From the NCBI RefSeq assembly GCF_044324785.1, contig NZ_CP172127.1: DNA of 64,000 nucleotides; one strand, 5' to 3'. The notes under the pieces are model-generated. The model saw only the letters and a list, made by a program, of their open reading frames with translations, had not been told where the DNA came from and ran no database searches. This DNA comes from Escherichia coli. GTDB taxonomy: Bacteria; Pseudomonadota; Gammaproteobacteria; Enterobacterales; Enterobacteriaceae. The position numbers and the translations under genes were made by a program. Numbering within the stretch: position 1 is the stretch's first letter; each line of letters begins with the position of its first letter. Positions 61,146 to 63,206 of this stretch are shown piece after piece.

Positions 61146-63206
61146 ATGCTACCAAAAGCCGCCCGCATTCCCCACGCCATGACGCTTCATGGTGATACGC
61201 GCATCGATAATTACTACTGGCTGCGGGACGATACGCGTTCTCAGCCGGAAGTCCTGGACTACCTGCAACAAGAAAATAGTTACGGTCATCGGGTGATGGC
61301 CTCGCAACAAGCCTTGCAGGATCGCATCTTAAAGGAAATCATCGATCGCATTCCGCAAAGAGAAGTTTCTGCTCCCTACATAAAAAATGGCTACCGCTAT
61401 CGGCATATTTATGAACCAGGCTGTGAATATGCTATCTACCAGCGTCAATCGGCATTCAGCGAAGAGTGGGATGAGTGGGAAACATTGCTCGATGCCAACA
61501 AGCGCGCAGCTCATAGTGAGTTTTATTCGATGGGCGGAATGGCGATTACGCCCGATAACACCATTATGGCGCTGGCAGAAGATTTTCTTTCCCGACGCCA
61601 GTACGGCATTCGTTTTCGTAATCTGGAAACAGGTAACTGGTACCCGGAACTGCTGGATAACGTTGAACCCAGCTTTGTCTGGGCAAATGACTCCTGGACT
61701 TTCTACTATGTTCGCAAGCATCCGGTGACGCTGCTGCCTTATCAGGTCTGGCGTCACGCCATCGGTACGCCAGCATCGCAAGATACACTGATCTACGAAG
61801 AAAAAGACGATACCTATTACGTCAGCCTGCATAAAACGACCTCGAAGCATTATGTAGTCATTCATCTGGCCAGCGCCACCACCAGTGAAGTTCGCCTGCT
61901 GGACGCGGAAATGGCCGATGCCGAGCCGTTTGTTTTTCTGCCGCGCCGCAAAGATCACGAATACAGCCTTGATCACTACCAGCATCGGTTTTATCTGCGT
62001 TCCAACCGCCATGGCAAAAACTTTGGCTTATACCGTACCCGTATGCGTGATGAGCAACAGTGGGAAGAGTTAATTCCGCCACGCGATAACATTATGCTGG
62101 AAGGGTTTACGCTGTTTACCGACTGGCTGGTGGTTGAAGAACGTCAGCGCGGGTTAACCAGTTTGCGCCAAATCAACCGCAAGACCCGGGAAGTCATTGG
62201 CATTGCCTTTGATGATCCGGCCTATGTGACCTGGATTGCCTACAATCCAGAACCTGAAACCGCGCGATTGCGTTATGGTTATTCTTCCATGACCACACCA
62301 GACACTTTGTTTGAACTGGATATGGATACCGGTGAGCGTCGTGTATTAAAACAAACAGAAGTGCCCGGTTTTGATGCGGCGAATTACCGCAGTGAACACC
62401 TGTGGATAGTCGCCCGTGATGGCGTCGAAGTTCCGGTTTCGCTGGTCTACCATCGCAAACATTTTCGCAAAGGACACAACCCGCTACTGGTGTATGGCTA
62501 CGGTTCTTACGGCGCAAGTATTGATGCCGATTTCAGTTTTAGCCGCTTGAGTTTGTTGGATCGTGGATTTGTCTACGCCATTGTCCATGTTCGCGGCGGT
62601 GGTGAGCTGGGGCAACAATGGTACGAGGACGGTAAATTTCTGAAGAAGAAAAATACGTTTAATGATTATATTGATGCCTGCGATGCATTGTTAAAACTGG
62701 GCTATGGCTCTCCTTCACTCTGTTATGCGATGGGCGGGAGTGCGGGGGGCATGTTGATGGGCGTTGCAATTAATCAACGCCCGGAATTATTCCACGGCGT
62801 TATCGCCCAGGTACCGTTTGTTGATGTTGTAACAACGATGCTTGATGAATCAATTCCTCTTACCACTGGTGAGTTTGAAGAGTGGGGGAACCCGCAGGAT
62901 CCGCAATATTACGAGTACATGAAAAGCTACAGCCCGTATGACAACGTCACCGCACAGGCTTATCCGCATTTACTGGTAACGACCGGTTTACACGATTCTC
63001 AGGTGCAATATTGGGAACCGGCAAAATGGGTCGCTAAATTGCGCGAGCTGAAAACCGATAACCATCTTTTATTGCTCTGTACCGACATGGACTCAGGCCA
63101 TGGCGGTAAATCTGGCCGCTTTAAATCGTACGAAGGTGTAGCGATGGAATATGCTTTTCTGGTCGCGCTGGCGCAGGGAACATTACCCGCTACGCCTGAG
63201 GATTAA
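61146..63206 (+). CDS. ptrB: Oligopeptidase B (protease II) PtrB
   Basis: ORF track 686 aa; S9 prolyl oligopeptidase family, GGSAGG serine motif. Confidence 0.95.

Follow-up and report, generated by a model that had tools for sequence, protein, structure and literature searches.

The window, by which we mean the whole stretch of 64,000 nucleotides of Escherichia coli DNA that was analysed, contains the convergent genes ptrB (oligopeptidase B, 686 aa), located at 61146..63206 on the + strand, and exoX (exodeoxyribonuclease X, 220 aa), located at 63203..63865 on the - strand. Both appear in the list of open reading frames and both are annotated in strains N3 and MG1655, where exoX is a gene of 663 nt. 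Against the NCBIfam equivalog families, PtrB matches NF007511 with 1598 bits over positions 1-685 of 686 and ExoX matches NF005937 with 463 bits over positions 1-219 of 220. These scores are far over the cut-off and identify two genuine convergent coding genes; together with the annotation of N3 and MG1655, they show that the gene names proposed in the initial annotation were correct. The exoX frame of the ORF table (63203..63919, - strand) is longer than the real CDS, which starts at the ATG at 63865-63863 according to the annotation of strain N3. The profile coverage and the presence of the same ends in 10 E. coli assemblies indicate that these are the true ends of the two proteins and not those of mis-called frames.

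Read directly from the sequence, the + strand at positions 63198-63206 is GAG GAT TAA and the ptrB stop is the TAA at 63204-63206. On the - strand, exoX ends with GAA AAT ACT TAA, its stop being the reverse complement of 63203-63205. Two nucleotides (63204-63205) are common to the two stop codons, the CDSs including their stops overlap by 4 nt over the TTAA at 63203-63206, and the length of intergenic DNA between ptrB and exoX is zero. With both reading frames verified, the two stops are found inside one (C/T)TA(A/G) tetramer, referred to below as YTAR, and both the shared TTAA and the 2-nt overlap of the stop codons, which had been claimed from the sequence, are confirmed. A back-up in-frame stop for ptrB, TAA at 63219..63221 (+), is the next one after the codons for VFSR and is the reverse complement of the His-Tyr codons of exoX; it caps any extension of PtrB at 5 residues. 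Were the window's exoX stop lost, ExoX would gain 67 residues. At the extreme end of exoX, a weak sigma-70-like match on the - strand (63235..63206; TTAACA, 18-nt spacer, AATACT, 9/12) faces into ptrB antisense, and the number of sigma-70-like matches in the junction region is at chance level.

The 1-kb junction region was found in about 5424-5425 of the 5426 complete E. coli genomes, at 95-99.5% identity. In the MG1655 annotation, exoX (1926120..1926782, + strand) and ptrB (1926779..1928839, - strand) have the same 4-nt overlap, which is also present in N3 (99.5% identical) and in 8 further E. coli strains sampled at even steps down the ranking. The tetramer is polymorphic among the 11 E. coli sequences: in the ptrB sense, TTAA is carried by the window, N3 and 4 other E. 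coli, CTAA by K-12 and 3 others, and TTAG by one O157 strain, each of the three variants still encoding a stop on both strands. Judged from these sequence comparisons, the ptrB/exoX arrangement is inherited and not accidental.

A scan of one genome per species gave 80 loci with exoX relatives, all from Enterobacteriaceae, 77 of which had both gene ends readable. The convergent neighbour of exoX is ptrB in 77/77 evaluable species, and the stop-to-stop spacing ranges from -19 to +38 nt, never exceeding 38 nt. At least 12 spacing states exist among the 77 species, and they differ even inside genera. A spacing of -4 nt is the commonest state (34 species), -19 nt is found in 22 species, 0 nt in 8, +2 to +12 nt in 9, each of -15, -14 and -10 nt in 1 species, and +38 nt in 1, Salmonella enterica subsp. 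arizonae. All the -4 loci carry a YTAR tetramer, which reads in the exoX sense TTAA (27 loci), CTAA (3), CTAG (3) or TTAG (1). At the -19 loci the tetramer, again in the exoX sense, is CTGA in 17, GTGA in 1, GTAG in 2 and GTAA in 2; the exoX stop is retained, the opposite-strand ptrB codon is now a sense codon, and ptrB runs on to a stop that the conserved exoX His-Tyr codons (CAY TAY) provide on their complementary strand. This back-stop is found in 56/56 loci of the -4 and -19 classes. Both classes occur within Citrobacter, within Enterobacter and within Kosakonia, which implies that the switch between them happened repeatedly. In the protein alignments, the last 8-10 residues of PtrB, following a conserved helix ending in ALAQG, are hypervariable in sequence and length, as are the last ~4 residues of ExoX next to a conserved KHYL.

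Some of these loci deserve a separate description. The arizonae locus (L033; exoX stop at 3694-3696, ptrB stop at 3735-3737) is the sole one with a real spacer; its ExoX has a longer and different C-terminal tail, and the 38 nt between the stops contain a 7-bp hairpin (CAGCGAC...GTCGTTG) without a U-tract. The locus titled Chryseobacterium sp. 18061 (L035) and that of an uncultured Raoultella MAG (L021) carry exoX-ptrB sequences of the usual Enterobacteriaceae type, with an ExoX identity of 90-92%, and the Chryseobacterium label probably reflects a mislabelled or contaminated assembly.

The simplest reading of this comparative material is that the stops drift neutrally within tails free of constraint and that YTAR is a robust state in which they come to rest, a model drawn from the distribution of spacing states across species rather than from a reconstructed phylogeny. 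If the last residues (~8-10 aa in PtrB, ~4 aa in ExoX) are unconstrained, the stop codons would be expected to drift. The four YTAR tetramers (TTAA, CTAA, TTAG, CTAG) would then be a mutationally robust resting point for both stops, since each carries a stop in both strands and neither stop is lost through transitions at the two outer positions. A change of the third base (exoX TAA to TGA), or of the first base to G, would leave the exoX stop in place and remove that of ptrB, which could then gain 5 more codons up to the back-up stop provided by the exoX His-Tyr codons, giving the 19-nt overlap. The 67 residues that loss of the exoX stop would add fit with a movement of mainly the ptrB end.

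Terminators were searched for on both sides of the overlap. The terminator consensus scan gave no site at the junction, either in the window (60900-64000; 3 sites versus 3.5 expected from shuffles) or in the N3 locus (L001, 2300-7000, reaching 2.5 kb beyond the ptrB stop; 6 sites versus 5.2 expected from shuffles). When 300 nt around the junction were folded, the z-scores were unremarkable (-1.6 for the + strand and -1.0 for the - strand), RNAalifold predicted 0 conserved pairs on either strand for 79 aligned junctions, and a permissively filtered Rfam search (E up to 1) matched nothing at the junction. In the region from -60 to +400 of the stop, a terminator-like site was present at 7/77 loci for exoX and at 4/77 for ptrB; these sites are fewer than in the control, where 24% of arbitrary 460-nt stretches carry one, and none is positionally conserved. 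An intrinsic terminator at or near the junction was rejected on the basis of these counts, which equal those of shuffled sequence in E. coli and are below the control in the 77 species. The absence of an intergenic terminator, also claimed in the initial annotation, is thus borne out by the scans, by the ordinary z-scores and by the lack of conserved pairing in the 79 sequences.

The last 70 nt of ptrB contain a 9-bp long-range stem, GGTGTAGCG / CGCTACGCC, at 63134..63197. Its arms (63134-63143 and 63188-63197) include one G·U pair in the window and are perfectly paired in K-12; the stem is restricted to E. coli and its closest relatives and is without covariation across genera. The idea that a conserved hairpin in the 3' end of ptrB serves as a terminator, or shields the 3' end of the exoX mRNA, was rejected in view of the lack of conservation of this stem and of the 0 pairs given by RNAalifold on both strands.

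Since there is neither intergenic DNA nor any site resembling an intrinsic terminator, the transcripts must end inside the partner gene. This consequence of the overlap, already put forward in the initial annotation with collision as the alternative, is supported, the exoX direction being backed by a published Rho region of MG1655 at 1927253 (+), designated 'antisense ptrB' (Adams et al. 2021 eLife, PMC7815308, Suppl. file 2). In this BCM/DirectRNA-seq dataset, upstream and downstream reads at 1927253 (+) are 82 and 12 without bicyclomycin and 140 and 129 with bicyclomycin (BCM), and the Rho score is 6.30 (p 3.4e-10; Adams et al. 2021, PMC7815308). This site, which follows the final base of the exoX stop by 471 nt, is equivalent to ~62732 in the window, the Rho region being placed only within a few hundred nt because of the 800-nt comparison windows used in that study. 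Among the Term-seq 3' ends in the supplements of the same study, none carries the name of exoX or ptrB.

The sequence of the window agrees with this position. A C-rich, G-poor stretch of the exoX-sense RNA at 62503..62802 (-), lying 400-700 nt beyond the exoX stop in ptrB antisense, is the likely Rho loading and termination zone, as indicated by its C/G ratio and by the published Rho region. In 100-nt windows from +450 to +700, the exoX-sense C/G ratio is 1.6-2.0, the strongest C-over-G bias being at the Rho position, and these values reach or exceed the 95th-99th percentile when every 100-nt window of the 64 kb is considered. The median C/G ratio of 78 loci is ~1.5 at +400 and +550 in the exoX sense. 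The RNA at the termination zone is untranslated and has the C-rich, G-poor composition of a rut site, although this stretch could reflect the codon content of ptrB rather than a selected rut site. Mechanistically, as intergenic DNA and an embedded hairpin terminator are both lacking, each transcript would continue untranslated into the antisense of its partner, and the exoX-sense RNA would be terminated by Rho on reaching the C-rich, G-poor stretch 400-700 nt downstream. The ending of exoX transcripts inside ptrB via Rho is published for MG1655, and we infer the same for the present strain. A further Rho region of MG1655, at 1925695 (+), is located inside yobB, just upstream of exoX and on the same strand, beyond the end of the window (Rho score 2.97, p 7.5e-7; Adams et al. 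2021, PMC7815308); it suggests a partial premature termination before exoX.

The ptrB-sense RNA has another composition past its stop. In strain N3 its downstream C/G ratio is at most 1.36 for the first 1.5 kb, and the median of 78 loci is at most 1.14 over the first 500 nt, so that no C-rich, G-poor RNA characteristic of a Rho-dependent terminator was found in exoX for this direction. Adams et al. 2021 (PMC7815308) report no Rho region for ptrB-sense RNA, and exoX is named in no supplementary file. The lack of rut-like composition for ~1.5 kb makes read-through of exoX and yobB antisense probable; the ptrB-sense RNA would probably traverse part or all of both genes before a diffuse Rho/NusG stop. 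On the ptrB-sense strand of MG1655, 1547 nt past the ptrB stop and at the start of the first C-rich stretch, position 1925232 (-), antisense to holE, appears as a Term-seq 3' end in a single tab of Suppl. file 1 (Adams et al. 2021, PMC7815308). It is equivalent to ~6054 in the N3 locus, beyond the end of the window, and may be the end of ptrB read-through, or that of an independent antisense RNA, or belong to the 5' leader of yobA.

These data very probably describe an ordinary, inherited 4-nt tail-to-tail overlap of unrelated housekeeping genes, with drifting stops and with Rho ending the exoX-sense RNA. The other readings differ in how the overlap or the missing terminator is explained. That one frame would in fact end earlier through a sequencing or annotation error, leaving no overlap, is exceedingly improbable: evidence in its favour was looked for and none was found, the family profiles are covered by both proteins through to the final or penultimate position, and the geometry recurs unchanged in 34 other species as well as in 10 E. 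coli assemblies that are independent of one another. The profile coverage and the independent assemblies led us to reject such an error, and the condition under which the overlap was originally said to fall, an ORF ending earlier, does not hold, neither frame being truncated or artificially extended. Intrinsic terminators embedded in the coding sequence of the partner, ending both transcripts, have a precedent in the 23 of 116 genes of E. coli convergent overlaps (Lillo & Krakauer 2007), and a weak 5-bp hairpin followed by a T-run does lie inside exoX on the + strand (63826..63840); the site counts equal to those of shuffled sequence, and the 7/77 (exoX sense) and 4/77 (ptrB sense) within 400 nt against 24% in the control, without positional conservation, make this very unlikely here. 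Both ptrB and exoX are presumably weakly expressed; RNA polymerase collisions at ptrB/exoX are possible and, with such expression, would be infrequent. Overlapping bidirectional terminators and collision-driven termination have reportedly been described by Ju et al. 2019. A collision-programmed bidirectional termination, in which converging RNA polymerases pause at a stem-loop of the overlap and dislodge each other, leaving precise Rho-independent 3' ends, has been modelled for hundreds of E. coli convergent pairs (Wang et al. 2022, bioRxiv 10.1101/2022.10.23.513370), and could find a substrate in the 9-bp stem at the end of ptrB and in the overlapping exoX-ptrB transcripts reported by ExcludonFinder (PMC12288877). 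This model needs a stem-loop, and the stem is specific to E. coli, with RNAalifold giving 0 conserved pairs on both strands in 79 sequences and with unremarkable folding z-scores, such that scans, folding and alignment give no stem-loop of this kind in the overlap. It also requires trailing polymerases, that is, a high expression, and Rho-independent terminators, whereas the exoX-sense read-through is ~0.5 kb long and bicyclomycin-sensitive in MG1655, with a Rho score of 6.3, the opposite of Rho independence. The Rho dependence of the exoX-sense RNA in MG1655 means that collision is not its sole mechanism of termination, and we regard the collision model as improbable at this junction.

A regulatory role of the missing terminator has also to be weighed. 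In a selected excludon, the terminator would be kept absent for a mutual repression of ptrB and yobB-exoX through antisense RNA, RNase III cleavage or transcriptional interference. ExcludonFinder places exoX-ptrB among the 165 convergent excludons of MG1655 (PMC12288877), the junction is tight (at most 38 nt) in 77/77 species, and the ptrB-sense RNA is without terminator or rut-like composition across the whole of the exoX and yobB antisense. Yet such a listing is automatic once the CDSs overlap, and the text consulted in that article describes no reciprocal expression of exoX and ptrB. The spacing varies freely among at least 12 states, even within genera, which looks like drift and unlike a tuned element; the same tightness is seen at 3 of the 11 convergent junctions of the window, and Rho lets the exoX-sense antisense cover just ~0.5 kb of a gene 2 kb in length. 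Given this free variation in spacing and the frequency of similarly close junctions in the window, a selected excludon function is not favoured and is considered unlikely. Slightly less likely still is an asymmetric functional excludon, in which the ptrB RNA would run ~1.5 kb antisense through exoX and yobB, end antisense to holE and silence yobB-exoX. If true, ptrB induction would silence the yobB-exoX operon, linking a protease to a DNA-repair exonuclease, and the family-wide lack of an intergenic spacer would be maintained for this silencing. The literature on exoX, ptrB and yobB in relation to Rho, antisense RNA and terminators gave nothing further than ExcludonFinder. We retain the ordinary inherited overlap with drifting stops as the preferred reading.

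The ptrB/exoX overlap is a real and ordinary member of a well-described class, already present in annotation and literature. Among convergent overlaps, a jump at length 4 is known, E. coli having 58 convergent overlaps in total and a predicted rho-independent terminator in only 23/116 genes (20%) (Lillo & Krakauer 2007, Biol Direct 2:22). The CTAA, TTAA, CTAG and TTAG overlaps of that study have a geometry identical to the present one, with opposed stops sharing the central TA, and nothing essential is different; what is added here is the family-wide history of one junction, with at least 12 spacing states and a switch from -4 to -19 via a conserved back-stop. In the convergent excludon class of ExcludonFinder (NAR 2025, PMC12288877), exoX-ptrB is one of 165 MG1655 pairs and its overlap is detected in at least 50% of 58 RNA-seq samples. 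The pair shares with that class overlapping transcripts, which are inevitable when the CDSs overlap; the defining functional trait of an excludon is a mutually exclusive expression via antisense, whereas the membership of exoX-ptrB rests on transcript overlap. With the class of Rho-terminated read-through and antisense RNAs (Adams et al. 2021, citing Peters et al. 2012), the exoX-sense region shares a local excess of C over G similar to the genome-wide average of Rho regions, the mapping being here for the exoX direction and for MG1655 only. The likeness to overlapping bidirectional terminators (Wang et al. 2022, 10.1101/2022.10.23.513370) consists of the convergent layout of two genes and the 3'-end overlap of their transcripts; those terminators combine a stem-loop with Rho independence, whereas exoX/ptrB has no conserved stem-loop and its exoX-sense read-through is Rho-dependent.

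The significance of the overlap is small, as it is in the K-12 reference annotation, its class has been known since 2007, the Rho region was mapped in 2021 and the pair was catalogued in 2025. The added value is modest and is that of a worked example of junction evolution, with wandering stops, a YTAR rest state and a one-base shift to a 19-nt overlap, which also shows a directional asymmetry in how readily Rho can act.

Elsewhere in the window, 11 convergent junctions were counted, 3 of which have at most 6 nt between stops: ptrB/exoX (-4), ruvC/yebB (+1) and otsA/uspC (+6). The stops of ruvC (+) and yebB (-), at 41364 and 41366, are 1 nt apart, as they are in MG1655 (1946853 and 1946855), and those of otsA (+) and uspC (-), at ~9540 and ~9547, are 6 nt apart; uspC-otsA is also listed in ExcludonFinder (PMC12288877). 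Between yebE and ptrB, an element of the IS200/IS605 family, named ISEc46 in the N3 annotation, occupies 59338..60989, with tnpB at 59338..60507 (-) and tnpA at 60564..60989 (+). Its end is ~157 nt upstream of the ptrB start, and in MG1655 the yebE-ptrB spacer consists of 208 nt only. An ISEc46 insertion at this site was found in 400 of 5426 complete E. coli genomes, many of them pig or ETEC; the insertion could alter the transcription of ptrB and, in consequence, how much antisense RNA enters exoX. Finally, ruvA (42243..42854) is an intact ORF of 203 codons in the window and is annotated as a frameshifted pseudogene in N3 (L084, 42246..42856), a difference by which the window is distinct from N3 despite an identity of 99.5-99.9%.
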